Of a stretch of 64,000 bases of DNA, positions 50,881 to 64,000 are shown piece after piece. Positions within the stretch are counted from its first letter, which is position 1; every line of letters begins with the position of its first letter. The stretch comes from an uncultured Acidobacteriota bacterium (lineage in GTDB: Bacteria > Acidobacteriota > UBA6911). A program made the position numbers and the translations under genes. The notes below the pieces were generated by a model. It saw only the letters and a list, made by a program, of their open reading frames with translations, was not told the origin of the DNA and did not search any database. The DNA lies in the NCBI GenBank assembly GCA_963809485.1, contig CAWEJX010000020.1:32001-96000 (forward strand), in the 5' to 3' direction.

Positions 50881-52059
50881 TTGAATCCCTTTGTCATAGA
50901 CAGTCGTGCTCAAATTACTGCGGCCGCAGTCCGGCGCCTGCGCCGCGGTCATCTGTGGGTTTATGCCGGGGACGTAGAGCATGAGCCTTCCGGAACTCCC
51001 GCGATTGTTCAGGTAAACGATCCGGCTTCCAATGTTCTGGGATATGCCTTTTATAGCAGGCAATCGCAGATTCGGCTGCGCTTTCTTTCCCGGGATACGG
51101 ATCCGCCTACCATAGATTTTTTGCGGGCCCGTATCCAACAATCGATAGGCAGAAGACGGGGAATGATGGGTGAAGGATCGGCATGCCGTCTGGTTTTTGG
51201 AGAGGGAGACCTGCTCCCTGCCGTCATTGTGGACCGATATGGTGATTACGTCGCATTGCAGACTCTTTCGAGCGGCGCCGACGCGATAAAACCTGCACTG
51301 GTTGACATTCTCGCAGATCTGCTCTCACCGGTGGGAATTCTGGAGAGGAATGACGTTAAGTCCCGCCGTTTGGAAGGACTTGAAGAAAAACAGGGCGTTT
51401 TGTGGGGGAGTGTTCCCAAGGAAATTGAAATATTGGAAGATGGAACCCGATTCCTGATCGATTTAAGGGGTGGACAAAAAACAGGCTTTTTCCTCGATCA
51501 AAGTCAGAATCGCATAGCCGCCAGGAAGTATGCTTCCGGCCGGGCATTGGATTGCTTCAGCAATACGGGGGCTTTTGCGCTCCAATTCGCGCGATGCTGC
51601 GATTCCGTATTGGCGGTCGACATATCCGCCGAATCACTGGAGATTGCGCGCCGCAACAGCGAACTCAACGGCATCAAAAATGTCGATTTTGTGGTCGGGA
51701 ACGTTTTTGATTTTCTCCGGGAAATGGAAAGCGGGGGTCAGTTGTTTGACACAATATGCCTGGACCCTCCGGCATTCGCCAAAAACCGGAAGTCGCAGGC
51801 CGGCGCGAGAAGCGGATATAAAGAAATCAACTTGCGGGCTCTCAAGCTGCTGCGGCCGGAGGGTATTCTGATTACGTCGAGCTGTTCTTATCACATTTCC
51901 GAGACGGATTTCTTTGATCTGGTCTGCGATGCTGCCCGTGACAGCCACCGTTCCCTTCAGGTTATCGAGAGACGCGGGCAGGCGAATGACCACCCGGTGC
52001 TGGCAGGCATGCCTGAAACGCAATACCTCAAGTGCTTCTTCCTTCGGGCTATTCATTGA
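50881..52059 (+). CDS. rlmI: RlmI-family rRNA m5C methyltransferase
   Basis: GHLWVY PUA-like start, GQKTGFFLDQ, LDPPAF, TSSCS, ETQYLK. Confidence 0.85.
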   Translation: MNPFVIDSRAQITAAAVRRLRRGHLWVYAGDVEHEPSGTPAIVQVNDPASNVLGYAFYSRQSQIRLRFLSRDTDPPTIDFLRARIQQSIGRRRGMMGEGSACRLVFGEGDLLPAVIVDRYGDYVALQTLSSGADAIKPALVDILADLLSPVGILERNDVKSRRLEGLEEKQGVLWGSVPKEIEILEDGTRFLIDLRGGQKTGFFLDQSQNRIAARKYASGRALDCFSNTGAFALQFARCCDSVLAVDISAESLEIARRNSELNGIKNVDFVVGNVFDFLREMESGGQLFDTICLDPPAFAKNRKSQAGARSGYKEINLRALKLLRPEGILITSSCSYHISETDFFDLVCDAARDSHRSLQVIERRGQANDHPVLAGMPETQYLKCFFLRAIH

Positions 52060-52421: not shown

Positions 52422-53261
52422 CTACTTCTTCTGCGATTCCCTGGCAATATCTTCGGGCGTCGCATCTTTGGCGCAGCGGAAGCCGAAATCATATAGGGCT
52501 TCCGGCTGAGCTCCCAGGCGCTCCCATATATGCGCAACCTTCCCTCGGTAGCGCGAAGACAGGCCTCGGACCACACGGTGAGTCTCTCCGGATACGGGAT
52601 TTCTCTTGGGATTTCCCTTATAGGTCTTATACCAGGAAGAGGTCCATTCCTGAACATTCCCGAGCATATCAACGGCACCATAGGGGCTTATATCATCGTA
52701 TTGAGCAATTGCAGTCGGCTTGGATGGTCCAAATTCGTAGGTGTTCGCCCGCTTTTCCCCCCAGTCATTTCCCCAGGGATAGCCTCGTCCATCGGTTCCT
52801 CGGGCTGCTTTTTCCCATTCCTCTTCAGTCGGAAGCCGCTTCCCTTCTGCTTTGCAGTAAGCAGCCGCATCGTTCCAGGTAATATAAACAACCGGGTAAA
52901 GGCCTTTATCCGGGGTAAAGAACAGCCTCCAGTCCTTGCCCTCTTTGGCGCCTTCACCGGTGTAGCCGGTTTTGATGGAAAAGTCCAGGAATTGAGAATT
53001 TGTTACTTCGTATTTATCGATATAGAATGCCGGCAAATCGACCTTAAGCTGCGGATAGGCATCGTTATTTTTGTCATCCGTGCCCATGATGAACTCTCCT
53101 GCCGGCACGAAAACCATCTCTCCGGGAATAACGGCCGGCGTGGCGATTTCGGCAGCGCCTTCGCCCTCAACCTGTTCAGCGGAATCCTTGCGGCCGCAAG
53201 CGCTTAAGGCGCAAACGGCCAGTAACAAAATAATAAAAGCAAAATATGCCTTTCTTGACAT
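52422..53261 (-). CDS. Formylglycine-generating enzyme/SUMF1-domain lipoprotein
   Basis: Lipobox LSAC; FIMG, YEVTN, RLPTEEEWEKAARG, DMLGNVQEW, GFRCA. Confidence 0.88.
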   Translation of the reverse strand: MSRKAYFAFIILLLAVCALSACGRKDSAEQVEGEGAAEIATPAVIPGEMVFVPAGEFIMGTDDKNNDAYPQLKVDLPAFYIDKYEVTNSQFLDFSIKTGYTGEGAKEGKDWRLFFTPDKGLYPVVYITWNDAAAYCKAEGKRLPTEEEWEKAARGTDGRGYPWGNDWGEKRANTYEFGPSKPTAIAQYDDISPYGAVDMLGNVQEWTSSWYKTYKGNPKRNPVSGETHRVVRGLSSRYRGKVAHIWERLGAQPEALYDFGFRCAKDATPEDIARESQKK

Positions 53262-53578
53262 GATTTCTCCTTGGGAGTTGTGCATAAATCCCAAAATGCG
53301 TGATGCTTTATACAGTAACTCGGCCATCCAGTCAAATTCAGCCTGGTGACGAAATCACAAAACCTCCGACCATGATTATTATGGTATAGACCTGGCCAAA
53401 ATCAAAGCCCGCTGCTTTGCCCGAATCCCCTGAAGCTCTCAAACCGGCATGGCCATTAACGCCTTAAGTGCCTGCAGATGCTCATTGTTATTGCAATTGC
53501 TGCAATCTAACACTATCATTCGCAACCATAAACGCTATCGTGGCCGTAGTTGCCGAGTCCCCTCGACTGAGGCTCGAG

Positions 53579-55954
53579 ATGGCAGAGATGCATTGGAAGT
53601 TGCGATCGGACCTTGAGATTCGTTCGGAGCCGAACTCAGGGATTATCATTAAGGATCCGATCACCGGCAGTTTCTATAGATTCCCTCCCGTGCAGGCTTC
53701 AGTGCTGGAGCTATTGGATGGGCAGGCCGATGCTGCGTCCATAGCCGCATATGTTTCCGAGAAACATCAGACCGAAGTCCTGGAAGAACAGGTAACGATT
53801 TTTGCCGGAAAGCTGCAAGCGCTTGCTCTGCTTGATCATCCCTCTTGCTGGGCCAAGCTCGAAAATCTGGGTAAGAAAAAGCGCGGAATTGTGCGAAGCA
53901 TACTTTCGATCAAGATACGCGCTTTCAATCCCGACACATTTTTGACCGAGCTCGAAAAAAAGGTTCGTTTCTGCTTTAGCCCGGCTTTTGCGACGATTGC
54001 CTTGGGCACCATGGCTATCGCCATGGTCATTTCTGTTCTGAATTGGGAATCGCTGTTTGTTTCTGTGCGCTCCCTTTTCTCCCTTTATTCCGTTCCGCTT
54101 ATACTGACGGTAGTTTTTGCCGTCATGACTATCCATGAAATATCGCATGGCGTTGCATTGAAACACTTTGGCGGGAAAGTGGAGGAGATGGGATTCATGA
54201 TTCTCTATTTTATCCCGGCCTTCTATTGCAATGTCAGTGACGCATGGATGCTGAAGAAGCGCGAGCGGATCCTGGTCTCATTGGCGGGAAGCTACATCCA
54301 GGTATATCTCTGGGCTCTGGCCACAATAGCATGGAGGCTACTGGCGCCCGAAATCCTGCTAAGCCGGATTTGCCTCATTGTTATAGCCTTCACGGTTATT
54401 CAGACCCTGCTCAACTTTAATCCGCTGATCCGCTTGGATGGCTATTATGTTCTTAGTGATTTTATCGAAGTCCCCAATTTGAGGCCTAAGGCTGTTAAGT
54501 ATATCAAGGATCGGGTTCAGTCAATGCTTACTGGAGCGCCCCATGTAAGCGCTGGCGGACTAAACTCAAGAGAGAAAAGGTTATACTTGTATTACGGGAC
54601 TTCTTCTTTGCTCTTCACTGCGGCTCTGATAGGGATTATGTTTCAGCGTCTCGGAGAGTGGATGGTTCGTGAATATCAGTCATGGGGCGTGCTTTTGATA
54701 TCGGTGCTTTTTTTAATGGTTGTACCGATTGCGAAGAAAGAGAACGCGACGAATTCCGGAAAGATGCTAAAGCTGGTTATAAAGCGCACAGGAAAAACCC
54801 CTTGGGCCCTCATAGTTATTTGCCTCCTGTTAGCAGCCGGGTTCCTGCCCTGGGAGCTGAAAATTTCGGGCGATTTTACGATCATAGCCTCCAAGAGGGT
54901 TTCTGTGACACCACAGGTAATGGGGAATCTGAAGAAGATACATGTCGGGCAAGGCAGCCAGGTTCGTGCGGGGCAGTTGCTGGCAGAGATGGAAAATCTG
55001 GAGATTGCCAATAATTACCAGGAGACCAAAGGGGAACTTGCATCCCAGATGGCTTCACTGGATCTGCTGAAAGCCGGATCCAGGCCCGAGGAAATTGAAA
55101 GAGCGAAGCGGCTTGTGGAGACAAAAAAGGCTGAGCTTTATAACGTATCCCGAATCGCCCAGGAGCGCGCGGTTTTACTTGAGACTATCGCCAAAAAGGA
55201 GGCCGAACTGGCCAATGCCCGGCTAAATCACGAACGGTCGCAAAAGCTTCTTGATACCGGGCTGATAGCACGAAATGATGCGGACAGGGACCGGACAGCT
55301 TATGAGGTTCGGCAGAAGGAGCTTTCGGAAGCCAAGGGGAAGCTTAAGGTTTTGGAGGAGCAGACGGATCGGAGCCGGGACATCAAGAACAAGGAATTGG
55401 CTCAGGCCAATAGCGAACTCAGGATACTCCTGGCGGGATCGCGCAAGGAAAACATACGGGCGGTTGAGTCTCAGGTGAAAAAGCTGGAAGAAAAGCTGTA
55501 TATCCTTGAACGTGAAATTGAGCTTTTAAAAATACGAAGCCCTATTGATGGTGTAGTTTCCACATCCTATCTCCAAAACAGAATCGGCGATTTTTTGGAC
55601 AAAGGAGATGCATTCTGTGAAATTGTCAGTGAAGGAACGGTGGTGGTGGAAATGCCCGTTCCTGAGAAGGAGATTGGAGATGTGAGCCTGGGATTTCCGA
55701 TCACCATCAAAGTTCGCGGATATCCGAAGCGCTGGTACAGGGCTCATGTAACCAGCATCGCGCCGGTGGCTGCAGTCCATGGGCTGGAACGGATTGTGGT
55801 AGTGCAGGGCCAGTTGGAAAATCCGGATGGCAGTCTCAAAGCCGGGATGACGGGAGTGGGCAAGATTCTATGCGGAAAGCGGATGATTTTTGACATCGTA
55901 TCCCGTCGCCTGATCCGGTGGCTTCGGACGGAGTTTTGGGAATACCTGCCTTAA
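53579..55954 (+). CDS. Fusion of PqqD/RRE-like domain, M50 (site-2) zinc peptidase and HlyD-type periplasmic adaptor
   Basis: N-terminal 'IIKDPITGSFYRF..VLELLDG'; HEISH (HExxH) and NPLIRLDG; coiled coil plus IRSPIDGVV and LKAGMTG. Confidence 0.85.
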   Translation: MAEMHWKLRSDLEIRSEPNSGIIIKDPITGSFYRFPPVQASVLELLDGQADAASIAAYVSEKHQTEVLEEQVTIFAGKLQALALLDHPSCWAKLENLGKKKRGIVRSILSIKIRAFNPDTFLTELEKKVRFCFSPAFATIALGTMAIAMVISVLNWESLFVSVRSLFSLYSVPLILTVVFAVMTIHEISHGVALKHFGGKVEEMGFMILYFIPAFYCNVSDAWMLKKRERILVSLAGSYIQVYLWALATIAWRLLAPEILLSRICLIVIAFTVIQTLLNFNPLIRLDGYYVLSDFIEVPNLRPKAVKYIKDRVQSMLTGAPHVSAGGLNSREKRLYLYYGTSSLLFTAALIGIMFQRLGEWMVREYQSWGVLLISVLFLMVVPIAKKENATNSGKMLKLVIKRTGKTPWALIVICLLLAAGFLPWELKISGDFTIIASKRVSVTPQVMGNLKKIHVGQGSQVRAGQLLAEMENLEIANNYQETKGELASQMASLDLLKAGSRPEEIERAKRLVETKKAELYNVSRIAQERAVLLETIAKKEAELANARLNHERSQKLLDTGLIARNDADRDRTAYEVRQKELSEAKGKLKVLEEQTDRSRDIKNKELAQANSELRILLAGSRKENIRAVESQVKKLEEKLYILEREIELLKIRSPIDGVVSTSYLQNRIGDFLDKGDAFCEIVSEGTVVVEMPVPEKEIGDVSLGFPITIKVRGYPKRWYRAHVTSIAPVAAVHGLERIVVVQGQLENPDGSLKAGMTGVGKILCGKRMIFDIVSRRLIRWLRTEFWEYLP

Positions 55955-56511
55955 ACGCACGTATTACATTCGTTATTCAAGCTGCTGTCGGGACAGAACT
56001 CTATTACTGCATATCGGCATACCGCACGCTATAAATTACAGAATTAAACAATTTATATTGACAAGATCATTGGAACCCTGTTATTTTCCACAACATAGCT
56101 AAGAATATGCTTTGGGAAACGCGCATCGGGAACTTGCTTTTTTGAGTTTTTGGTGGCGAATCCGGCTTGGCTATGAAGATCAGCATTCTCGAATAGCTCT
56201 CTCACCTTGATGAGCATCTGGTCTGTTTTCGCATGGGGAAAACGGATTTGGATGCCTCTCCCAATCTGAGCAAGAGCAAAAGCTGATGTTGCGGCAGGGC
56301 TTTGCGGTTGAGGTTTAAGTTCTTGCTTCTGATGCACAAGCCGGAGGCGGATATCTGTGGATATGCCGTGCCGGATCAAGCCATCCCGTAAGCGGGGCTG
56401 CCTCGAAGCAAACCTGGAGCAACCAAGCTTTGTTGTTCCTATTGGGTTTCGAACTGTAAGGGGGCAACCTCGAACAGAAAGATTTCCAACGAGGAAGCTG
56501 TGTCTGTGTAT

Positions 56512-56528
56512 TTGGCTGAATTAGTGCC
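56512..56528 (+). promoter_or_regulatory. Candidate sigma54 -24/-12 promoter
   Basis: TTGGCTGAATTAGTGCC with GG(56514-15)-N10-GC(56526-27); predicted TSS ~56539, just before the AAGGAGG RBS. Confidence 0.5.
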
Positions 56529-56553
56529 GTTCCGCGCAGCAAAGGAGGCCTTT

Positions 56554-56580
56554 ATGGCAAGCGGAATTCTTTGGCTGTAA
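56554..56580 (+). CDS. Micro-ORF peptide MASGILWL
   Basis: AAAGGAGG at 56541-56548, then ATG GCA AGC GGA ATT CTT TGG CTG TAA. An in-frame GTG at 56500 would give a 26-aa version. Confidence 0.55.
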   Translation: MASGILWL

Positions 56581-56632
56581 TGCTCGGGGACACCCTCAGT
56601 GCCACCGAAGCAAGTTCAAAAGTGGAGGCTGT

Positions 56633-56692
56633 ATGCAGACCGAAATCGAAATTCTCGAAACTCGTGAAAATCCTAGTGTTCTCTGGATGTAG
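56633..56692 (+). CDS. Micro-ORF peptide MQTEIEILETRENPSVLWM (putative precursor peptide)
   Basis: GGAGG RBS at 56624-56628; 19 codons plus TAG; acidic leader-like part and a C-terminus resembling the upstream peptide. Confidence 0.7.
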   Translation: MQTEIEILETRENPSVLWM

Positions 56693-56731
56693 GATCTAGC
56701 GTGTTTGTAGGACGAGAAAACTTTCTCGCAT

Positions 56732-56789
56732 TTGATCTGCAGGTCAGATCTGGGAGTTTCTCACTCCTGGATTCTGATCTGCAGATCAA
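56732..56789 (+). terminator. Long stem-loop downstream of the micro-ORFs
   Basis: TTGATCTGCAGGTCAGA-TCTGGGAGT / ACTCCTGGA-T-TCTGATCTGCAGATCAA, about 26 bp of stem with G-U pairs; no clear U-tract. Confidence 0.55.
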
Positions 56790-56929
56790 CAATAAGTCAT
56801 TGGCCTGCTAATCCATTGAAATTATTGGTCTTGGTAATTTTCTTTTGACTAATGCCCAACCAATCGATTGCCGATTAGTTCACGGAGGCCTTTTAGATAG
56901 AAATACTGATTTCTCGGCCTGAGATTTTT

Positions 56930-59346
56930 ATGACTTGGCATGATCTGCCCAAGAAGCTTAAATATTTTATCGTTCTCATAAATCTTCTAGCTCTTCCGAT
57001 TTTTGCCCTATCCTCGTGGAATCTCATCCAGCACCCGCCAAGTGACAAAGGCTGGATAATCCTAACTATTTTAACCGTCTTAACTGTACCGGCATTCCTC
57101 GGCTTCCCTCGGTGAACACAATGGCACTCATAGGGGATGCCTATGTAATGTCAATTGCAATGATGTACGGGTGGACACCTTGTATCGTGGCAACTGTATG
57201 CCATAGTTTGGTCGCTTCCATTTTTGGCATACAAAAATCAAAACGATACATTTATCGGATTGCATTCAATGTATCGAGCAGTGTTTGTTGTGCCTGGGCT
57301 TATAGTAGCATCTATCAACTAATGAATCCCGGGCTGAGCAAGCATGCAGCGGACATAGCTTTGCCCACCGTTGCACTGACAATTACATTTTTCGCCCTGA
57401 ATTCTCTTCTAACAGCAGTAGCCATAGGACTGGCATCAGGGCAAAATGTCCTTCGATTTTGGACCGAAAATTACCTTTCTTTGGGGGTCGAATTTTCCAT
57501 ATCTTCTGTTTGTGCTGCGCTAATAGTAACCCTCTACCAGATGGGTCCTTGGGTACCATTCATTGCAGCTCCATTTATAAGCGTAGTCTGGGGATGGAAT
57601 AAATTGAACAAAGCAAAGGCCATGGAAGCCGAAAGGCACTTGAAGGAGCAAGAAGAGCTTTACATGCGGACGGTAGAATCACTGGCACTGGCTGTTGACG
57701 CAAAAGACCAAACCACGTACGGACACATTCGACGGGTCAAGGTTTATGCGACTGGTCTTGCAAAGCTGGTAGGCATCAAAAATCCTGACGAGCTTAAAGC
57801 AATTGAAACTGGTGCATTACTTCATGATATTGGCAAACTGGCCATTGACGATTACATTCTGAATAAGCCCGGGCGCCTTTCGAAACAGGAATTTGAAAAG
57901 ATCAAGATGCATGCAACTGCCGGCGACGAAATTTTGCAGCAGATCCGATTCCCGTTCCCAGCGGCTAAGTACGTGCGTTACCATCATGAACGTTGGGACG
58001 GACAAGGCTACCCGGACGGACTAAAGGGAGAAGAAATACCGCTTGGGGCCAGGATACTATCCATTGCTGATGCTTTCGATGCCATTCGCTTTTCGCGCCC
58101 CTACAAGCTTTCGATTGTGCAGGACGAAGCAGTTGAAATCCTTCGATCTCAGAGCGGGACTGTCTATGATCCTAAGTTGATTCAGCTATTTTTAGAGCAT
58201 ATCGTGGAATTGGAGGAAGCCGCTGCAAAAGAGTCCGAAAGTGTTCCTGAGCTGTCCTTCAGAAAGTACTTCGAAAAAGTCGATCAAGCAATATCTGCTG
58301 CCGATGTTTCGCTCTCTGGCCTTTCTGTTCCACAAGATATCCCGGCCGAACTTGTACAACTGGCTGAATTTTGCAGCACGATGACCGGACATCTCGATCT
58401 AGGAGATATTCTCTCTGTTATTGCGCGAAAGATGGAGCGACTGGTTCCATATACTACTTGCGCATTTTATGTTGATGACGGGGAGGATCACGTACAAGCA
58501 ATTCATGTAAATGGGAGGTTTTCTGAAGTTGTCCAAGGACATAAAATCAGCATGGGCAAGGGAATAAGCGGCTGGGTAGCTGCATATAGACGACCCATGA
58601 TTAACACTGGACCCGCACTTGATTTTCAGGGGATCCAGGGGGACTTTTCCGCATTTAAGGATGCTCTTGTTGTACCAATTTCCCTAGATGACGAATCGCT
58701 GGGAACAATATCGCTCTATGCGCAGGAACCCATCGCATATAGCCCGTATGAATTGAGCATATTGCAGACGTTATCAAGCTTTATTGCGCCGTTAATCTCT
58801 GATGCCAAAAAACATGCAGCCGTTTCATCTGAGCACTTTATCGATCCAACAACACATATTCACCGCGTTTCCTACCTGACTGCAATCGGCCCGCAGCTTA
58901 TCTTCTTTCGCTAGCAAAAACCGGGCTCCTGTTTCGCTGATTTATCTCGGGATTAGGAATTTATCTCAAATCATACGTGTGTATGGAGATGCTGTATCCA
59001 ATTCGGTTGTTAAAAAGGGTTGCGGCATCCATCAAACCCGAGCTACGGGAGACAGACGTTCTTGGTTCGATATGGGCATCAGGCATTTGTAGCCTTTCTG
59101 CCTGGCGTTCGTGACGATCAAGCTAATCATTGCGTGGTCCGCCTTCTTCATCAGATACGGAATCAAGGATTGGCTTTTTCCGGCCAAAATGTGCTGGTCG
59201 ACTGTAAAGCAGGTATATCTTCATTCCCAAAAGATGGAGCCACGATATTCGCTCTAATCCAGTCCGCGCAGGAGAATATTTTGGATGCTGATCCTGGGGC
59301 ATCGGTGGCGGACAATAATGTCGTGGATTTCCTGCCGCGCGCCTAA
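56930..59346 (+). CDS. Membrane-sensor HD-GYP phosphodiesterase with GAF and degenerate GGDEF domains (frameshifted into 3-4 pieces)
   Basis: Multiple N-terminal TM helices; LLHDIGK, HHERWDGQGYPDGL, IADAFDA; GAF 'GKGISGWVA'; RYGHQAF in place of RYGGDEF. Confidence 0.85.
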
Positions 59347-59372
59347 AACCATATTTTGCAATATTATAGAAA

Positions 59373-62300
59373 TCAGTTCGCGCGAGAACTCCGGAACTGA
59401 CGATATTCCAGATAGCAATTGTTGCGCTTTAAGAACAACATAATCGACGAATATTGCCGAGCCGGGATTCCCAAAATCTCAAAAGCCTCACGATAATTCC
59501 CCTTAGCCTGTTTCAGCGCCTTATGCAATACGGCTCGTACAACTGATGGGCCCAATTGGTGACTCGAAAATGGTTTTTTCACCAAGTCTGCGAAGCTCCC
59601 TCTTTTATCAAGGATGTCGTTAAAAAGCCCCTCGGCAGTTTCAAGTTCCAAATTTGCCTCTCTGGGCATTGCATTGCGAACATCCAAAGGCAAGTGGTTA
59701 ACATCGAGAATTGAGTCGGTTGTTGAGAAGTATGCCCCTTCAACAATCTTTATCAATTCCCTGACGTTTCCTGGATAGGAGTATTTTTTTAGTACATTAA
59801 TCGCACTGGGTGAGAACCTCTTGACCCTACCTCCTTCCATTTCAGCTGTTTTCGACAAAGCCCATGCGAGCAATATAGGGATATCATCTTGGCGTTCCCG
59901 CAATGTCGGCACCTGAATTTCCATAGCCTTCAGTCTGTAGTAAAAATCCTTTCGAAATGTCCCTATCCTCATCTCCTTTATTAGGTCTTTGTTGGTTGCA
60001 GCAAGTACTTGAATGTCGATTTTGCGGGGTGCTGTTTCTCCCAATCGCCTTATTTCGCGCTCTTGCAGCACACGCAAGAGCTTGGCCTGCAGGCGAAGTG
60101 GCAAATTTGCAATTTCATCCAGAAAAATTACTCCCCCGTTTGCCGCTTCCAGTAAACCTTGTCGGTTTTCTGTTGCACCGGTGAAGGCACCCTTCCTATA
60201 GCCAAAAAGCTCGGCTTCCGCTAGGCTATCGGATAAAGATCCACAGTCCACGGGCACAAATCGGCCGGATTTACGCCTACCAGTTCTATAAATGGCCCGA
60301 GCCACCAATTCCTTCCCGGTACCGCTCTCGCCTGTTATCAATATATCTAGAGGTGAGTCTGCAGCGCGACCTATTCGCCTGCGCAATTCCTTCACCGCTA
60401 TGCTTTCTCCAATAATCTCCGCATATCCCTCTCGCGCTTGATGCAGATATTGTTCAAGCTCTGTTTTTTCCCTAATGAGCTGCTGATGCGCCAAGGCATT
60501 ATCAATCGCAATGGCTGCAAGATTACAGAAGGCGGCAAATAGACTAATGGTAGACTCACTTAGGCTTCTCGCAGGCGAAGAATGATCGGCATAGAGCACA
60601 CCCAGCACTCGTCCAGATACCTTCAATGGTGCGCATAAAATTGTCCCCAATTGAAAGGCAACAATGTGCTCCTTGTTTGCTACACGAGGGTCTCCTTGCG
60701 CATCGGCACTCACGAAGGGACTTCCTTTACGGCTTACTTCTTCTAATATATCCTGGCTAATAGCATGGGCCCCATCTAATGACTCTCGTTTGATATTCCT
60801 TCCCTTAAATAACTCGAGATTACCAGTAGATTCATTTTTTATAAACACCAAAGCCCTTTCAATCCCAACTGCTTCAATTAGCAAATCCACGATTGATTCA
60901 AGAAGGGGATCCAATTCCCTTATCGAATTGATAACTCTGCTAACTCGTAACAACGTTCGGATCTGCTGTTCCTGGATATCGTCAACAGCAGAGCTGCTAA
61001 AAATCCTTCGCTTGTTTTGCAGACTCTCATTGCGCTTCTCACACTCCGACATGGTATGACGTCGAGCAAAGGCTGCCCAGAATGATTCAAGCTTCGCTTT
61101 TGGCACTTTCTCCGCAATTATTTGAAGGCACTCTATCGTTTTTGAGCTGTGGTATAAGCAAGATTCCCAATTTGATAATATTTCTTCAATGCGTGACATT
61201 TCTGCATGGGAACGCCATTGAAGCTCGAAGTCTCCACAATCGCGCGAGAGTCTGATAGCGATTTCAACCTCATTTTTTGCATCTGTTATGGAATTATCTG
61301 AGTTCAACTTGAGCTTTCGAAAATTAAGCCCTCCCAATATTAAATGCGCTTTAGCCATAAGAAGATTACTATTCATCGCCCTTGCCAACCTCATTGCATT
61401 TCTAATAACCCTTGAGGCACCCTGTAAATCGCCACTTGCTGTAAGGCATTCGCCCAAATACAGTTTTATCAGGCATGATTGATACGGCCAGTGCTTTATT
61501 GTTACGGCCTTATTCAAGTTAGAAAGCAACCTAATTGCATCGGCTTCCCTTGCTCGCTGAAATAGAATGCATGCGCGGATGGCTTCGCCAAGTTCCCTTT
61601 CGTATACGGGTGCTTCAGAAGTTTCAAGTTTAGCCAATTGAGTAACATAGGCTAGGGAAAGATCAAAATCTCCGAGTTCGAAATTGAGCCACGCCGATAG
61701 ATAGGAGGCTTGCGCTTTTGAAAAAATGGCTACGAAAGGGCTTATTTCGAAATCTAGTTTGCATAATATATCGTTGGCACCTTGATAATCTCCGGTGGTG
61801 ATTTTGATGTCAGCCAGAGTGGCTTGACATGAGTGTTGGAGTATCGGGTTTCCGCTTTCAATAGAGAATCTAACCGCGCGTTCAGAGGCCGCCTTTGCCT
61901 CTGCCAGTTGTCCATCTCGGCATAGGCATTCAGCGTAATTGCTTAGAGCTTGGGATCTTAGGGGAATAGATCGACATTCTTCGCTGATTTTAACAGCGCG
62001 TTCATGATGCTCCAATGCCTTCGCAAATCTACCTCTTGCAAGCAAGCAGGCCCCATAATGTGAATGTGCCACTCCCAGTGCGCCAAAATCTTCATATTGC
62101 GCAAGGATATCAACAGATTTTTTTGCCGCACTAACAGCAGAATCTAAGTCGCATGCAACACGCTGAAGAGCGGAAACCAACGCATAAATTTGGCCTACTG
62201 CGACGCTCGCCTTTTCCCTGGACATTGCCCTAAGAGCTCGATTTAAAAGCAATAATCCTTGACGTGGATGTGATTTTATAAGCTGACAGTAAGCTAGGTG

Positions 62301-64000
62301 TCTGAGCAGTGAAGCCCTAATTGTCGAGTCCTTAGTTCCATACTGCCCCTTTAAAACCAGCAATGCCTTATTTGCAAATAACTCCACTTTTGCAGCATTC
62401 CCATCGTGACGATAGGAGACGGCCAATTGGAGTAGAAGGTTGGATTGCGTTGTGCTAGAAATCCGCCCAATTCTACTCAGGCTTCGCGTTATAAGCCTGG
62501 TTGCCTTCCTAGCCGATCCAAGGGCACAATAGCTCTCTGCAGCATTAATCGTAATTTCAGACAATACATCAGGAGGGTAGTTATTTCTCGTAGCCAAGAC
62601 ATACTCATAAAACAAAAGCGCACTATCATATGAATGATCGTTTTTGCATTCTGCAGCAGCATTGAGGGCATATTCAGTTGCCTTTTCGCGATGTTCACCC
62701 TGCATATAATGTACGGCCAATTCTTGGAGGTGGCCTTCTGGACCATACTCCTGTTCAAGCACCTCGGCGATTTTGCGATGCATCCTCCGTCGCATCGGCT
62801 TTGGCAGACTGCCACGGATCACTTCCGCAATCAGTGCATGGCGAAATTCCACGGTTTCATCTGATTCCTTAGCCTCCACACGCACCATCTGGCGATGGCT
62901 CAGTTCCTGCAACGCCTCGTTCGTTTCAGCCGAGCTTTTGGACATGACTGAAATCAGCGTTCCTTTGGAAACAGCCCGCTCCATTAAAGCCAGCCAGCGA
63001 GACAGCTCCTGGGCAAGTGAGGACAACTGGTGCAGACGACGCTGAAGAACCGCACTCAAGCTGGCCGGGACATCGAGGTTTTTCAAATCCTCATTGATAA
63101 ATATCCACGCACCCGACTCACAGCGGAGCAATTCCTGCTCAACCAGGTGCTTCATCATTTCTTCCAGAAAAAACGGATTGCCCCCAATATTTCTATACAT
63201 CCAGGATCCCAAGGTCACCCTTAGATTCCGATCTCCCGTCATTGCGGCAACCAAGTCCTGAACGTGATCCTGAGATAACGGTTCCAGCGTTACGACTTCC
63301 CCGCGCTGTTGCCGCACAACAAGCTCCATGAGCTTACCCAGCATTGCCTTGGGCTCCTCCCCGGTACGCAGGCTGACACACAGAAGAACCGCATGAGCCT
63401 GTATATCCGAACTCAGGTAATCCAGAACTGTGCAGGTGGCTTCGTCCGCCATGTTAAAGTCATCCAATAACAGCAGGGTTGGATGCTCTTTAAGACGCCG
63501 GACCAGTTCCCGGGTCAGCAAGTCCCGGAATTGCCCGGCCGCAAACTCAGAGGAAGACTCAAACGCGCCCGAATCCGGCACCCGGGGTGAATTCCCAAAA
63601 TCAAATAGCGCTTCTCCCTCCGCCGGCTCGGTTCGGGCCAATATCTGGCGGAAGGGTGCGTACGATCCATCCTCGCGCGTCCCACAAGTCCCCTCAATAA
63701 CCCTCCATCCTTCCAGAAGTGCCCAGCTTCTTAGTTCCTCCATGCACCTTGTCTTCCCGGATCCGGCTTCTCCTGTCAGGAATACTGTCCACCCCCGGCG
63801 GTTTCCCCGCACTCTATCAGCGCAATCCTGCAGGATCGTCATTTCTTTTTCCCGGCCGACAAACCGGGTGATGGAAAAATGACTTTCCAGTTCTTTCACG
63901 TCCATCGCCAAACAGTCTTTGCCGATGGCCTCGCCCAGCGGCCGCAACACTTCTTCCCTGGAATGAGGCCGTTTTGAAGGATCTTTGTCCAAAAGTCTGC
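59373..64000 (-). CDS. Giant sigma54-dependent activator: (kinase tail)-AAA/STAND NTPase-TPR-GAF-sigma54 interaction domain, 5'-truncated
   Basis: KDPSKRP kinase-tail-like motif; GEAGSGKT, GGNPFF; helical repeats; GAF; GESGTGKE, GAFTGA, FLDEI. Confidence 0.9.
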   Translation of the reverse strand, partial: RLLDKDPSKRPHSREEVLRPLGEAIGKDCLAMDVKELESHFSITRFVGREKEMTILQDCADRVRGNRRGWTVFLTGEAGSGKTRCMEELRSWALLEGWRVIEGTCGTREDGSYAPFRQILARTEPAEGEALFDFGNSPRVPDSGAFESSSEFAAGQFRDLLTRELVRRLKEHPTLLLLDDFNMADEATCTVLDYLSSDIQAHAVLLCVSLRTGEEPKAMLGKLMELVVRQQRGEVVTLEPLSQDHVQDLVAAMTGDRNLRVTLGSWMYRNIGGNPFFLEEMMKHLVEQELLRCESGAWIFINEDLKNLDVPASLSAVLQRRLHQLSSLAQELSRWLALMERAVSKGTLISVMSKSSAETNEALQELSHRQMVRVEAKESDETVEFRHALIAEVIRGSLPKPMRRRMHRKIAEVLEQEYGPEGHLQELAVHYMQGEHREKATEYALNAAAECKNDHSYDSALLFYEYVLATRNNYPPDVLSEITINAAESYCALGSARKATRLITRSLSRIGRISSTTQSNLLLQLAVSYRHDGNAAKVELFANKALLVLKGQYGTKDSTIRASLLRHLAYCQLIKSHPRQGLLLLNRALRAMSREKASVAVGQIYALVSALQRVACDLDSAVSAAKKSVDILAQYEDFGALGVAHSHYGACLLARGRFAKALEHHERAVKISEECRSIPLRSQALSNYAECLCRDGQLAEAKAASERAVRFSIESGNPILQHSCQATLADIKITTGDYQGANDILCKLDFEISPFVAIFSKAQASYLSAWLNFELGDFDLSLAYVTQLAKLETSEAPVYERELGEAIRACILFQRAREADAIRLLSNLNKAVTIKHWPYQSCLIKLYLGECLTASGDLQGASRVIRNAMRLARAMNSNLLMAKAHLILGGLNFRKLKLNSDNSITDAKNEVEIAIRLSRDCGDFELQWRSHAEMSRIEEILSNWESCLYHSSKTIECLQIIAEKVPKAKLESFWAAFARRHTMSECEKRNESLQNKRRIFSSSAVDDIQEQQIRTLLRVSRVINSIRELDPLLESIVDLLIEAVGIERALVFIKNESTGNLELFKGRNIKRESLDGAHAISQDILEEVSRKGSPFVSADAQGDPRVANKEHIVAFQLGTILCAPLKVSGRVLGVLYADHSSPARSLSESTISLFAAFCNLAAIAIDNALAHQQLIREKTELEQYLHQAREGYAEIIGESIAVKELRRRIGRAADSPLDILITGESGTGKELVARAIYRTGRRKSGRFVPVDCGSLSDSLAEAELFGYRKGAFTGATENRQGLLEAANGGVIFLDEIANLPLRLQAKLLRVLQEREIRRLGETAPRKIDIQVLAATNKDLIKEMRIGTFRKDFYYRLKAMEIQVPTLRERQDDIPILLAWALSKTAEMEGGRVKRFSPSAINVLKKYSYPGNVRELIKIVEGAYFSTTDSILDVNHLPLDVRNAMPREANLELETAEGLFNDILDKRGSFADLVKKPFSSHQLGPSVVRAVLHKALKQAKGNYREAFEILGIPARQYSSIMLFLKRNNCYLEYRQFRSSRAN

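Follow-up and report, generated by a model that had tools for sequence, protein, structure and literature searches.

A candidate peptide-signalling locus of micro-genes, a protease-adaptor fusion and an HD-GYP protein in one family of Acidobacteriota

Introduction

Can a bacterium enclosed by an outer membrane signal with ribosomal peptides of only a few residues, and can such peptides act on cyclic di-GMP (c-di-GMP)? This question is raised by a locus in an uncultured Acidobacteriota bacterium (NCBI GenBank assembly GCA_963809485.1, 6.0 Mb in 21 contigs). The locus lies within a stretch of 64,000 nucleotides, referred to here as the window (contig CAWEJX010000020.1, positions 32,001 to 96,000; G000:C20:32001-96000 in our numbering), and was studied from 52.4 kb of the window on. 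An earlier sequence-only reading had described four adjacent modules there: a fusion of a PqqD-like RiPP recognition element (RRE; RiPP, a peptide made by the ribosome and modified after translation) with an M50 peptidase and an HlyD-type adaptor, two tiny open reading frames (ORFs), a membrane-bound HD-GYP protein, and a convergent sigma54 activator. It proposed that the activator drives expression of two peptides, that the fusion matures and exports a short Trp-containing signal, and that the HD-GYP protein converts this signal into a change in c-di-GMP. All four modules are present where that reading placed them (Table 1).

Comparison with related loci from genomes and metagenomes, including a wider sample of 401 Acidobacteriota genomes, established that the micro-genes are real and conserved, that sequences carrying them occur in RNA libraries, and that the locus has a recurring architecture into which a mosaic cassette of peptide core and sensor domain is set. 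The explanation that accounts best for the whole, a peptide-signalling locus of one Acidobacteriota family, has in our judgment somewhat better than an even chance of being correct.

Two micro-genes conserved at the protein level

The two micro-ORFs between the fusion gene and the HD-GYP gene, termed type A and type B here, read as first described: both carry a ribosome-binding site and they share a C-terminal [IV]LW[LM], a pattern that is far beyond chance and is conserved elsewhere. Each is the sole ORF of its kind in the 6.0-Mb genome. A homologous-locus check suggested by the sequence-only reading turned out in their favor: all 10 close genome loci whose sequence continues past the fusion gene have at least one type (A in 9, B in 9), as do about 57 metagenome loci. 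The latter come from a search with a degenerate DNA pattern built on B codons 1 to 9, which returned 62 contigs, about 57 of them with true B genes; L110, L129, L133, L134, and L141 were dropped as chance or degenerate matches. Copy number reaches three B and two A copies in L009 and four tandem B copies in L136. The DNA ahead of the micro-ORFs is unalignable save for the Shine-Dalgarno (SD) sequence, and the ORFs are kept with synonymous changes.

Pooled over all sources, type B comprises 89 complete ORFs from 66 loci, with 75 unique DNA forms and 60 unique peptides. It consists of a conserved 14-residue leader, MQTEIEILExRExP, followed by a variable core of 5 to 9 residues, x-[IV]-[ILVF]-W-x, whose C-terminus may be M, T, G, Y, A, L, I, or a longer tail. 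At positions left free in the search pattern, Arg11 is present in all 75 unique DNA forms, encoded by six codons from both codon families, and Pro14 in 74 of the 75, encoded by four codons. The Trp is residue 18 in 57 of the 60 unique peptides.

Type A is an almost invariant leaderless peptide, found in 58 of 64 loci having at least 150 nt upstream of the first B. There were 69 detections, 63 of them with an SD sequence; three are internal-Met artefacts of B genes, leaving 66 true ones. The last five residues follow [AG]-I-L-W-L, with Ile and Trp in 51 of 51 unique DNA forms and Leu at position -3 in 49, through six codons, and all three stop codons are in use. Because residues are fixed while codons vary, A and B are genuine coding genes. 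The B precursor matched no NCBIfam or Pfam precursor model, the peptide strings gave nothing relevant in full-text literature searches, and in literature searches on related systems the daptide paper alone bore on the locus.

One B copy in a long-read metagenome-assembled genome (L017:11062) runs out of frame after the leader through a 1-nt difference, and the HD-GYP and activator genes of L017 are likewise in pieces. These broken frames may be either assembly indels or decay.

A hypervariable cassette spans the B core and the sensor domain

The protein encoded directly downstream of the peptides has the HD-GYP, GAF, and degenerate GGDEF domains that the sequence-only reading assigned to it, although that reading overlooked that the gene is frameshifted in the window. 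The HD-GYP motifs are HDIGK at residue 238, HHE at 291, and GYP at 299 (Pfam HD_5, E 1.3e-34). Its N-terminal membrane domain resembles MASE9, with PF20972 reaching 21.5 bits against 24.3 in the truncated reading from the window (E 2.4e-4, profile positions 73-189 of 203).

Twenty-five loci with an intact HD-GYP protein of about 800 amino acids could be compared region by region. Mean pairwise identity was 0.415 in the sensor, 0.734 in the catalytic domain, 0.430 in GAF, and 0.467 in the degenerate GGDEF. In individual pairs the sensor parts company with the rest of the protein. L089 (core CILWG) and L144 (TIFWY) are 0.98 identical in the catalytic domain and 0.93 in the rest, versus 0.35 in the sensor, and L098 (MIVWY) and L131 (SVLWM) share 0.84 of the catalytic domain versus 0.39 of the sensor. 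The converse holds for L013 against L092 and L098, all with core MIVWY, whose sensors are 0.80 identical and whose remaining sequence is about 0.50 identical. The sensor from the window is nearest to those of L131 and L143 (60 and 59%), which have the same core SVLWM; its catalytic domain is nearest to that of L016 (94%, core CILWG) and 70-72% identical to those of L131 and L143.

At the DNA level the variable block has sharp edges. Between L089 and L144, identity stands at 0.91-0.93 across type A and the B leader. Over the ~950 bp that start with the B core and stop where the sensor domain ends it is 0.38-0.64, and it then recovers to 0.97-1.00 in the catalytic domain and 0.92-0.97 over the remainder of the locus. 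For the window and L016 the values are 0.85-0.99 between 53579 and about 56650, 0.49-0.58 up to about 57580, and 0.77-0.91 beyond that point. The sensor domain thus tracks the B core and not the protein backbone, and core and sensor form one sharply bounded hypervariable cassette. The fusion gene lacks such a block, being 85-94% identical between the window and L016 despite their different pherotypes, as would be expected if it recognizes the conserved leader and not the core.

A block running from the peptide core to a domain junction and recurring on different backbones is, by analogy, the pherotype pattern of agr and comQXP, and it supports the HD-GYP protein as the putative peptide receptor. 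The earlier proposal that this sensor reads the peptide has consequently gained strong comparative support from the core/sensor cassette, with the qualification that the gene is frameshifted in the genome in which it was made.

The fusion protein and its relation to leader peptidases

The description of the upstream gene as a PqqD/RRE-M50-HlyD fusion is borne out by profile matches, with a sub-threshold PqqD part. NCBIfam NF041824 (daptide_HExxH) aligns to residues 63-421 of the 828-amino-acid reading over profile positions 22-367 of 379 (E 4e-62), scoring 210.5 bits, under the equivalog cut-off of 300 bits. The model for YydH/LiaK epipeptide proteases, NF058609, is also matched (E 3.6e-16), with 59.6 bits against a cut-off of 225. 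HEISH is found at residue 186 and LDG at residue 286, and in an alignment of 21 homologues, those of 25-37% identity included, H186, E187, H190, P282, and D287 are invariant and N279 nearly so, giving the HExxH and NxxPxxxLDG signatures of site-2 proteases. The C-terminal half matches TIGR01730 (RND_mfp/HlyD) at 101.6 bits, above its cut-off of 94.9, and Pfam HlyD_D23 at 66.4 bits against a cut-off of 30.

Assignment of the N-terminus to the RRE fold draws on weak but concordant sequence signals together with the homology to MpaP described below. Pfam PqqD matches the first ~100 residues over its full length, with E 0.0017, below cut-off. When the profile of this region was compared with PDB sequences, TfuB1 (0.053) and TbiB1 (0.094), both RRE proteins of lasso-peptide pathways, and PqqD (0.83) were among the six best matches.

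The fusion is the sole full-length copy in the 6.0-Mb genome, and its gene has a conserved start and a conserved sigma70-like promoter of its own. Orthologues appear in databases as "putative peptide zinc metalloprotease protein", "multidrug resistance efflux pump", or "efflux RND transporter periplasmic adaptor subunit", and 452 related proteins were found at E 1e-5 or better among 8000 scored candidates.

As judged from profile similarity, the closest characterised relative of the fusion is the daptide leader peptidase MpaP, which removes leaders from short precursors. In the daptide preprint (bioRxiv 10.1101/2023.03.08.531785), MpaP is an RRE fused N-terminally to an intramembrane site-2 protease that is encoded with several short precursors bearing the leader motif ELExMEAP. 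The likeness extends to the Acidobacteriota locus as a whole: the same N-terminal fusion of an RRE to an HExxH intramembrane protease, several short precursor genes adjoining it, and an acidic leader motif that ends in Pro (EIEILExRExP in B). Differences are equally clear. The fusion falls short of the equivalog cut-off, and its protease is further fused to an HlyD adaptor. The B core has about 5 residues and an invariant Trp, and lacks the invariant C-terminal Thr that the preprint gives for daptides; of the oxidative decarboxylase, aminotransferase, and ABC transporter mentioned there, none was seen among the neighbours scanned at the locus (a CCA-adding enzyme, a PUA-domain S-adenosylmethionine (SAM) methyltransferase, an FGE-like protein, the HD-GYP protein, the activator, and an Opp-like importer). 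The SAM methyltransferase nearby (50881-52059) looks housekeeping, with its PUA domain. Finally, the locus belongs to a diderm phylum and is linked to a c-di-GMP enzyme and a sigma54 activator.

Kinship with MpaP invites another view of the locus, in which the peptides are precursors of a secreted natural product, such as an antimicrobial or a minimal RiPP, which an unlinked enzyme, or the periplasmic FGE-like protein encoded next to the fusion, might modify. The HD-GYP protein and activator would then be mere neighbours, and the cassette would reflect diversifying selection on the product with hitch-hiking of adjacent DNA. A closest characterised relative that sits in a RiPP pathway, as the preprint presents it, agrees with this view, as do several tandem precursor copies per locus, which are typical of RiPPs, and an FGE-like gene that remains beside the fusion gene. 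A core of just ~5 residues fits it poorly, however, and no tailoring enzyme, immunity gene, or ABC pump occurs among the neighbours scanned. Hitch-hiking also predicts neither that the variable block stops exactly at the sensor/catalytic junction, as it does in two independent pairs, nor that the sensor tracks the core across different backbones, and both regulators are linked to the peptides in two different arrangements. A natural product is in our view an unlikely explanation.

Transcription, promoter, and leader RNA

Contigs from three metatranscriptome libraries of two studies, and from one DNA library, were placed on positions 55900-59400. The sequence-only reading had named lack of transcription of 56540-56700 as evidence against it; contigs from all three RNA libraries cover the micro-ORF region. 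Each of them yielded a single long contig over the leader and both ORFs: in X14 it has 524 nt (56183-56687), in X5 471 nt (56191-56661, with 1 mismatch), and in X9 553 nt (56188-56740). Many short RNA contigs match the B leader codons only and then run into other cores. These data fit an abundant RNA carrying A and B. Contigs from RNA libraries cannot define transcript ends, and the loose contig ends that X5 and X14 show upstream of 56185 point to RNAs of relatives that reach further upstream. Most of the HD-GYP gene is without an RNA contig, which has no bearing on its expression.

About 500 nt upstream of the peptides, a sigma70-type promoter, TTGACA-N17/18-TAnnnT, is found in all 11 close loci in a spacer alignment, and the promoter in the window was also returned by an independent search. 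Of the 41 metagenome loci whose upstream DNA is long enough, 24 keep it. The transcription start predicted from it in the window is at about 56095, ahead of the contig ends at 56183-56191. A variable stretch separates it from a conserved leader block, the starts of the TTGACA motif and the block lying 85-156 nt apart. The block, present in 9 of 11 close loci, folds as a long hairpin (29 distinct sequences), with basal helices that are sequence-invariant and a distal helix that covaries. Pairing holds in 91.7% of cells, where slid controls give 27-44%; covariation scores 0.213 versus 0.145, and 0 of 500 shuffles reached 0.213.

The leader RNA is single-copy in the genome and matched no Rfam family. 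A covariance model of it, R1, found weaker copies in L136, L089, and L107, and none in L013, L015, or the sigma54-class loci described below. Neither the c-di-GMP-I nor the c-di-GMP-II riboswitch of Rfam matched the window leader at E up to 1, and no c-di-GMP riboswitch reached the gathering score in 10 close and 12 distant loci. The leader RNA is thus a candidate new cis-regulatory RNA. The stem-loop that follows the peptide genes gave a match to mir-492, which was rejected as spurious.

Sigma54 control and a sister arrangement

Control of the window peptides by sigma54, as the sequence-only reading had it, does not hold up, with the sigma70-type promoter in its place in all 11 close loci and the structured leader in 9 of them. 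The GG-N10-GC motif that had been placed before both micro-ORFs lies before ORF A only (56514-56527), and none was read before ORF B. Such motifs occur at chance frequency in the window (781 observed, 826 +/- 27 expected). No conserved element close to TGGCAC-N5-TTGCW (-24 GG, -12 GC) stands before the peptides in the window. On a crude sigma54 score the site before A, the best one, reaches 15.5/20, like chance sites nearby, and it is shared with L016, the nearest relative, only; it was rejected as a promoter. No site of at least 18/20 occurs in the window locus or near these genes in seven related loci. The window's genome does encode RpoN.

The activator itself is as described, convergent and with an intact GAFTGA at residue 1523 of 1794. 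It combines a kinase-like domain, a STAND AAA_16 domain (Walker A at residue 332), MalT-like TPR, GAF, and a sigma54 AAA+ domain. The kinase-like domain (residues 1-300) has HGN for HRD and GFG for DFG, so it lacks the catalytic Asp residues and is probably a pseudokinase.

In a sister arrangement, seen in six metagenome loci several of which are near-duplicates (L093, L094, L096, L112, L122, and L142), the orthologous giant activator is co-directional and lies just upstream of the peptides. These loci have neither the TTGACA promoter nor the leader block. In L096 and L142 a perfect sigma54 promoter, TGGCACG-N4-TTGCT (20/20), stands ~50 nt before type A, and weaker TGG-N9-TGCA sites occur in the remaining sister loci and in the orphan loci L103, L108 (18.5), and L118. 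For L094, L096, and L142, whose ORFs were listed, no fusion or HD-GYP gene was found within 2.8-4.5 kb downstream. The claim that the activator drives the peptides through sigma54 accordingly fails for the window and is supported for the arrangement of L096 and L142, where the activator directly precedes a 20/20 sigma54 promoter before A and B. The activator belongs to the same module as the peptides.

L103 and L132 lie on one 50-kb metagenome contig and pair an orphan sigma54-like peptide locus with a fusion-linked locus that has the sigma70 promoter and leader RNA, which points to one organism with two peptide loci.

These arrangements bear on the idea that the micro-ORFs are cis-acting leader peptides that control the HD-GYP gene by attenuation or ribosome arrest at the Trp codon. 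Their position upstream of HD-GYP, a single Trp codon near the stop in each, and the strong hairpin that follows would suit such a role. Tandem copies with two families mixed per locus would not, nor would conservation of the entire peptide, beyond the part in the ribosome tunnel. The B leader resembles the RRE recognition motif known from the preprint, with an RRE protease adjoining. The sigma54-class loci, moreover, have A and B with no HD-GYP gene downstream, and in genome G210 a peptide gene is kept despite ~4 kb of integrase genes before HD-GYP. We consider a cis-acting role very improbable.

Linkage and distribution

Across the metagenome loci, the fusion lies directly upstream of the peptides in 24 of 30 with at least 1300 nt upstream (the activator in 4, neither in 2), HD-GYP follows them directly in 22 of the 31 whose downstream DNA reaches 1300 nt or more, and the convergent activator follows in 12 of 12 that have HD-GYP and at least 3600 nt beyond it. 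Among the 401 genomes, fusion homologues occur in 65, with orthologues above 50% identity only in the family of the window (6 of 6 besides G000). The B-leader DNA pattern was found in 5, all of one family, plus G210 by a looser pattern, and activator orthologues in 7 of 7 family genomes and 0 of 394 others; the fusion-homologue and activator tallies include the unpublished genomes G024 and/or G152. With every component restricted to one family, the profiles speak for lineage specificity, not for functional coupling. The co-occurrence check of the four genes came out in favor at the level of linkage in most metagenome loci and has little weight at the level of genomes. All sequencing runs with matches have small shares, which support no claim on habitat or strain.

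A rearranged case and loci cut by contig ends also occur in the family. On contig C15 of G210 (L083, G210:C15:1-12000), a B gene and a decayed copy stand at the contig start, and between the peptides and an intact 809-amino-acid HD-GYP orthologue lie ~4 kb with integrase (rve) and primase-like genes, so that the locus looks as if it had been rearranged by a mobile element. On contig C44 of the same genome the activator gene ends ~930 nt inside the contig, with no peptide gene after it. In G063 the contigs break off within the fusion gene and within the activator gene alike.

In other Acidobacteriota families, distant homologues of the fusion (25-36% identity) are often paired with a GAF-HlyD protein. 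Facing them are genes for a histidine kinase and an NtrC-type activator, together with a canonical sigma54 promoter and a small gene; no conserved micro-ORFs of the ILW type were found beside them. Behind the canonical sigma54 promoter, the small gene between fusion and activator (L056:7072-7449, minus strand; also in the gaps of L057-L059, L063-L067, and L070) encodes a conserved N-terminus of ~45 amino acids followed by highly variable basic tandem repeats. Such loci indicate that the link between protease-adaptor, small gene, and sigma54 activator is older than the ILW peptides.

A model of the locus and the evidence against it

The signalling reading starts from an RNA of ~0.55 kb that carries both micro-ORFs, which look translated, behind the sigma70-type promoter and the leader RNA. 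By homology to MpaP, the RRE domain of the fusion would bind the B leader, the HExxH/LDG intramembrane protease domain would cut B at or near the invariant Pro14, and the fused HlyD adaptor would hand a short hydrophobic Trp peptide outward. What stands of the earlier proposal that the fusion matures and exports such a peptide is an RRE-guided HExxH membrane protease with an adaptor, whose nearest relative removes leaders; cleavage and export themselves are inferred only. The MASE9-like domain of the HD-GYP protein would then sense the released B peptide, probably within the membrane, as comparative genomics suggests, given that core and sensor are exchanged together and the sensor follows the core, and sensing would alter c-di-GMP hydrolysis. 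The activator would act through a sigma54 promoter before the peptides in the sister arrangement and not in that of the window.

A more specific version, which we hold tentatively and at a little under an even chance, is pherotype-specific quorum sensing by peptides in a diderm: a 5-residue Trp peptide, set free by the leader-guided protease with its export adaptor and sensed in the membrane by the MASE9-like domain, would couple recognition between cells directly to c-di-GMP, with the invariant peptide A, the leader RNA, and the activator as a second regulatory tier and sigma54 autoinduction in some lineages.

A distinctly unlikely alternative, given the adaptor, is that the peptides are not exported and, once cleaved, tune the HD-GYP sensor of their own cell in the membrane. 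Small membrane proteins tune sensor kinases, and the peptides here are very hydrophobic and adjoin an intramembrane protease. The periplasmic loops of the sensor are short, ligand binding in the membrane has been proposed for MASE9, core and sensor co-vary, and the locus has no pump or outer-membrane duct, all of which would sit well with modulation from within. Against it, a protease fused to an HlyD-type adaptor that scores above a curated cut-off (TIGR01730) is hard to explain without passage through the envelope, and strain-specific diversification is a hallmark of discrimination between cells.

Several observations weigh against the signalling reading. Cleavage, export, sensing, and output through c-di-GMP are steps that we infer from sequence comparison. 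The NCBIfam and Pfam matches of the protease, RRE, and MASE9 parts miss their curated cut-offs; the top PDB match of the fusion's N-terminal profile was the unrelated ribosomal protein eS10 (E 0.042), and MASE9 was not matched at E 1e-5 in the intact 809-amino-acid HD-GYP orthologue. The locus encodes neither an inner-membrane pump nor an outer-membrane duct, and DNA can be present in RNA libraries. Nor is the correspondence of core and sensor perfect: L075 and L105 have the same core GVFWT, yet their sensors are 0.61 identical, and L102 (GVLWT) and L105 differ in core while their sensors are 0.84 identical. In a regression of sensor on core identity, 0 of 2000 permutations matched the observed value, a result confounded by kinship, as core-sharing pairs are also closer kin; the argument for the cassette is therefore built on the individual mosaic pairs. 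The B core and sensor are adjacent, a single recombination moves both, and their co-variation could arise from linkage alone. Regarding linkage, all components are confined to one family, so that genome-level co-occurrence is of little weight; 9 of the 31 assessable metagenome loci lack HD-GYP downstream (five of the nine have the activator-first arrangement); and in G210 the fusion, with its FGE-like neighbour, is unlinked from the peptides and followed by unrelated genes.

The HD-GYP gene of the window is, in addition, broken relative to L016, by one missing nucleotide near 57092 and one extra nucleotide each at 58903, 59012, and 59064, all four at short homopolymers. It is split into 56930-57115, 57112-58914, and 59020-59346; five relatives have a single ORF of ~800 amino acids. 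The intact orthologues of L016 and L131 have 802 and 816 amino acids. In the neighbouring genes (~9.8 kb of coding DNA) every protein aligns with L016 in one piece. By our own arithmetic the chance that four random indels all fall in the 2.4-kb HD-GYP gene out of 12.2 kb is ~0.0015, which makes real decay more likely than random assembly error. A related DNA contig is without the insertion at 58902, but it comes from a different strain. The window would thus hold either a signal-blind variant of the receptor gene or an assembly fault.

Comparison with known signalling systems

The agr (AgrB/AgrD/AgrC) and comQXP systems are pherotype loci of Gram-positive bacteria. As in these, a tiny precursor gene adjoins the gene of its putative membrane receptor, a bounded hypervariable block takes in the core and the membrane sensor, with conservation of the output domain and of the flanks, and closely related strains have different pherotypes. 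Receptor output there is through a histidine kinase, whereas here it would be through an HD-GYP phosphodiesterase with GAF and a degenerate GGDEF. The processing enzyme here does not co-vary with the core, the envelope is that of a diderm, and thiolactone or prenyl chemistry is not implied.

In streptococci and enterococci, short hydrophobic peptides, including XIP, are processed by the M50 protease Eep and exported by PptAB. These likewise come from unannotated micro-ORFs for hydrophobic signals matured by a site-2-type intramembrane metalloprotease, but they are re-imported and sensed by cytoplasmic Rgg or ComR, with no RRE, adaptor fusion, or c-di-GMP output. Diffusible signal factor (DSF), which acts through RpfC and RpfG in Xanthomonas and Lysobacter, offers a precedent for a cell-to-cell signal that leads to c-di-GMP hydrolysis by an HD-GYP protein. 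DSF is a fatty acid, however, and a separate histidine kinase phosphorylates a REC-HD-GYP regulator, whereas here a single protein holds both sensor and HD-GYP, and a ribosomal peptide is the candidate signal. The YydH/LiaK proteases, whose substrate is a short ribosomal peptide, share with the fusion a homologous membrane protease core of the HExxH type; the score of the fusion lies far below their cut-off, and no radical-SAM epimerase or ABC exporter was found among the neighbours scanned.

Layout of the locus and neighbouring genes

Table 1. Features of the locus in window coordinates.
Feature	Position	Strand	Basis or remark
FGE-sulfatase-like gene, divergent from the fusion gene	52422..53327	-	Pfam FGE-sulfatase, E 7.5e-49
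Sigma70-like promoter of the fusion gene, TTGCAA-N17-TATCAT	53491..53519	+	Conserved in an alignment of 12 upstream regions
Fusion gene, 791 aa: PqqD-like RRE, HExxH/LDG intramembrane site-2-type metalloprotease, HlyD-type periplasmic adaptor	53579..55954	+	
Spacer with both micro-ORFs, 975 nt	55955-56929		
Sigma70-type promoter of the peptide operon: TTGACA, 18 nt, TATTTT with TG	56058..56087	+	
Structured leader RNA: single-stranded invariant UUCUCGAAUA, then a long hairpin (base invariant, distal helix covarying)	56180..56283	+	
Type A micro-ORF, 8 aa, MASGILWL; family M-x2-5-[GA]ILWL; SD AAGGAGG	56554..56580	+	
Type B micro-ORF, 19 aa, MQTEIEILETRENPSVLWM: leader MQTEIEILETRENP and core SVLWM; SD GGAGG	56633..56692	+	
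Hypervariable cassette: B core, intergenic hairpin, HD-GYP membrane sensor domain (bounds approximate)	56650..57580	+	Sliding DNA identity
Stem-loop of 26 bp after the peptide genes, without a U tract	56732..56789	+	-57.1 kcal/mol, z -6.5
HD-GYP gene: MASE9-like membrane sensor, HD-GYP, GAF, degenerate GGDEF; four 1-nt indels	56930..59346	+	
Giant sigma54 activator, 1794 aa in all, convergent	59373..64000	-	Extends past the window end to window coordinate 64757

In every close locus, G210 with its relocated peptides among them, the FGE-like gene stays divergent beside the fusion gene; the G210 orthologue begins with a lipoprotein-type signal. Its membership in the system is uncertain; that the protein modifies the peptide in the periplasm is conceivable.

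Divergent from the activator, past the window end, lie genes for an Opp-like substrate-binding protein and two permeases (G000:C20:97096-101030, window coordinates 65096-69030), identified from ORF sizes and N-terminal sequences alone. This importer was found in 2 of 4 assessable genomes, being present in G280 and absent from G220 and G300, a linkage too weak for use, and it was set aside as a route of peptide re-import.

Implications

Ribosomal pheromone peptides with strain-specific receptor cassettes are textbook knowledge in Gram-positive bacteria and hardly known in bacteria with an outer membrane, and Acidobacteriota are abundant in soil with signalling that is largely unexplored. The peptides are short enough to be synthesized, and the pherotypes, SVLWM, CILWG, TIFWY, and MIVWY among them, provide ready specificity controls, so that the signalling reading is directly testable. 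If it is true, the locus would represent a new path by which a peptide signal reaches a second messenger without an intervening kinase, would give a function to a very large and unstudied family of RRE-protease-adaptor fusions, and would place a gene of 8 codons among the shortest conserved coding genes known.

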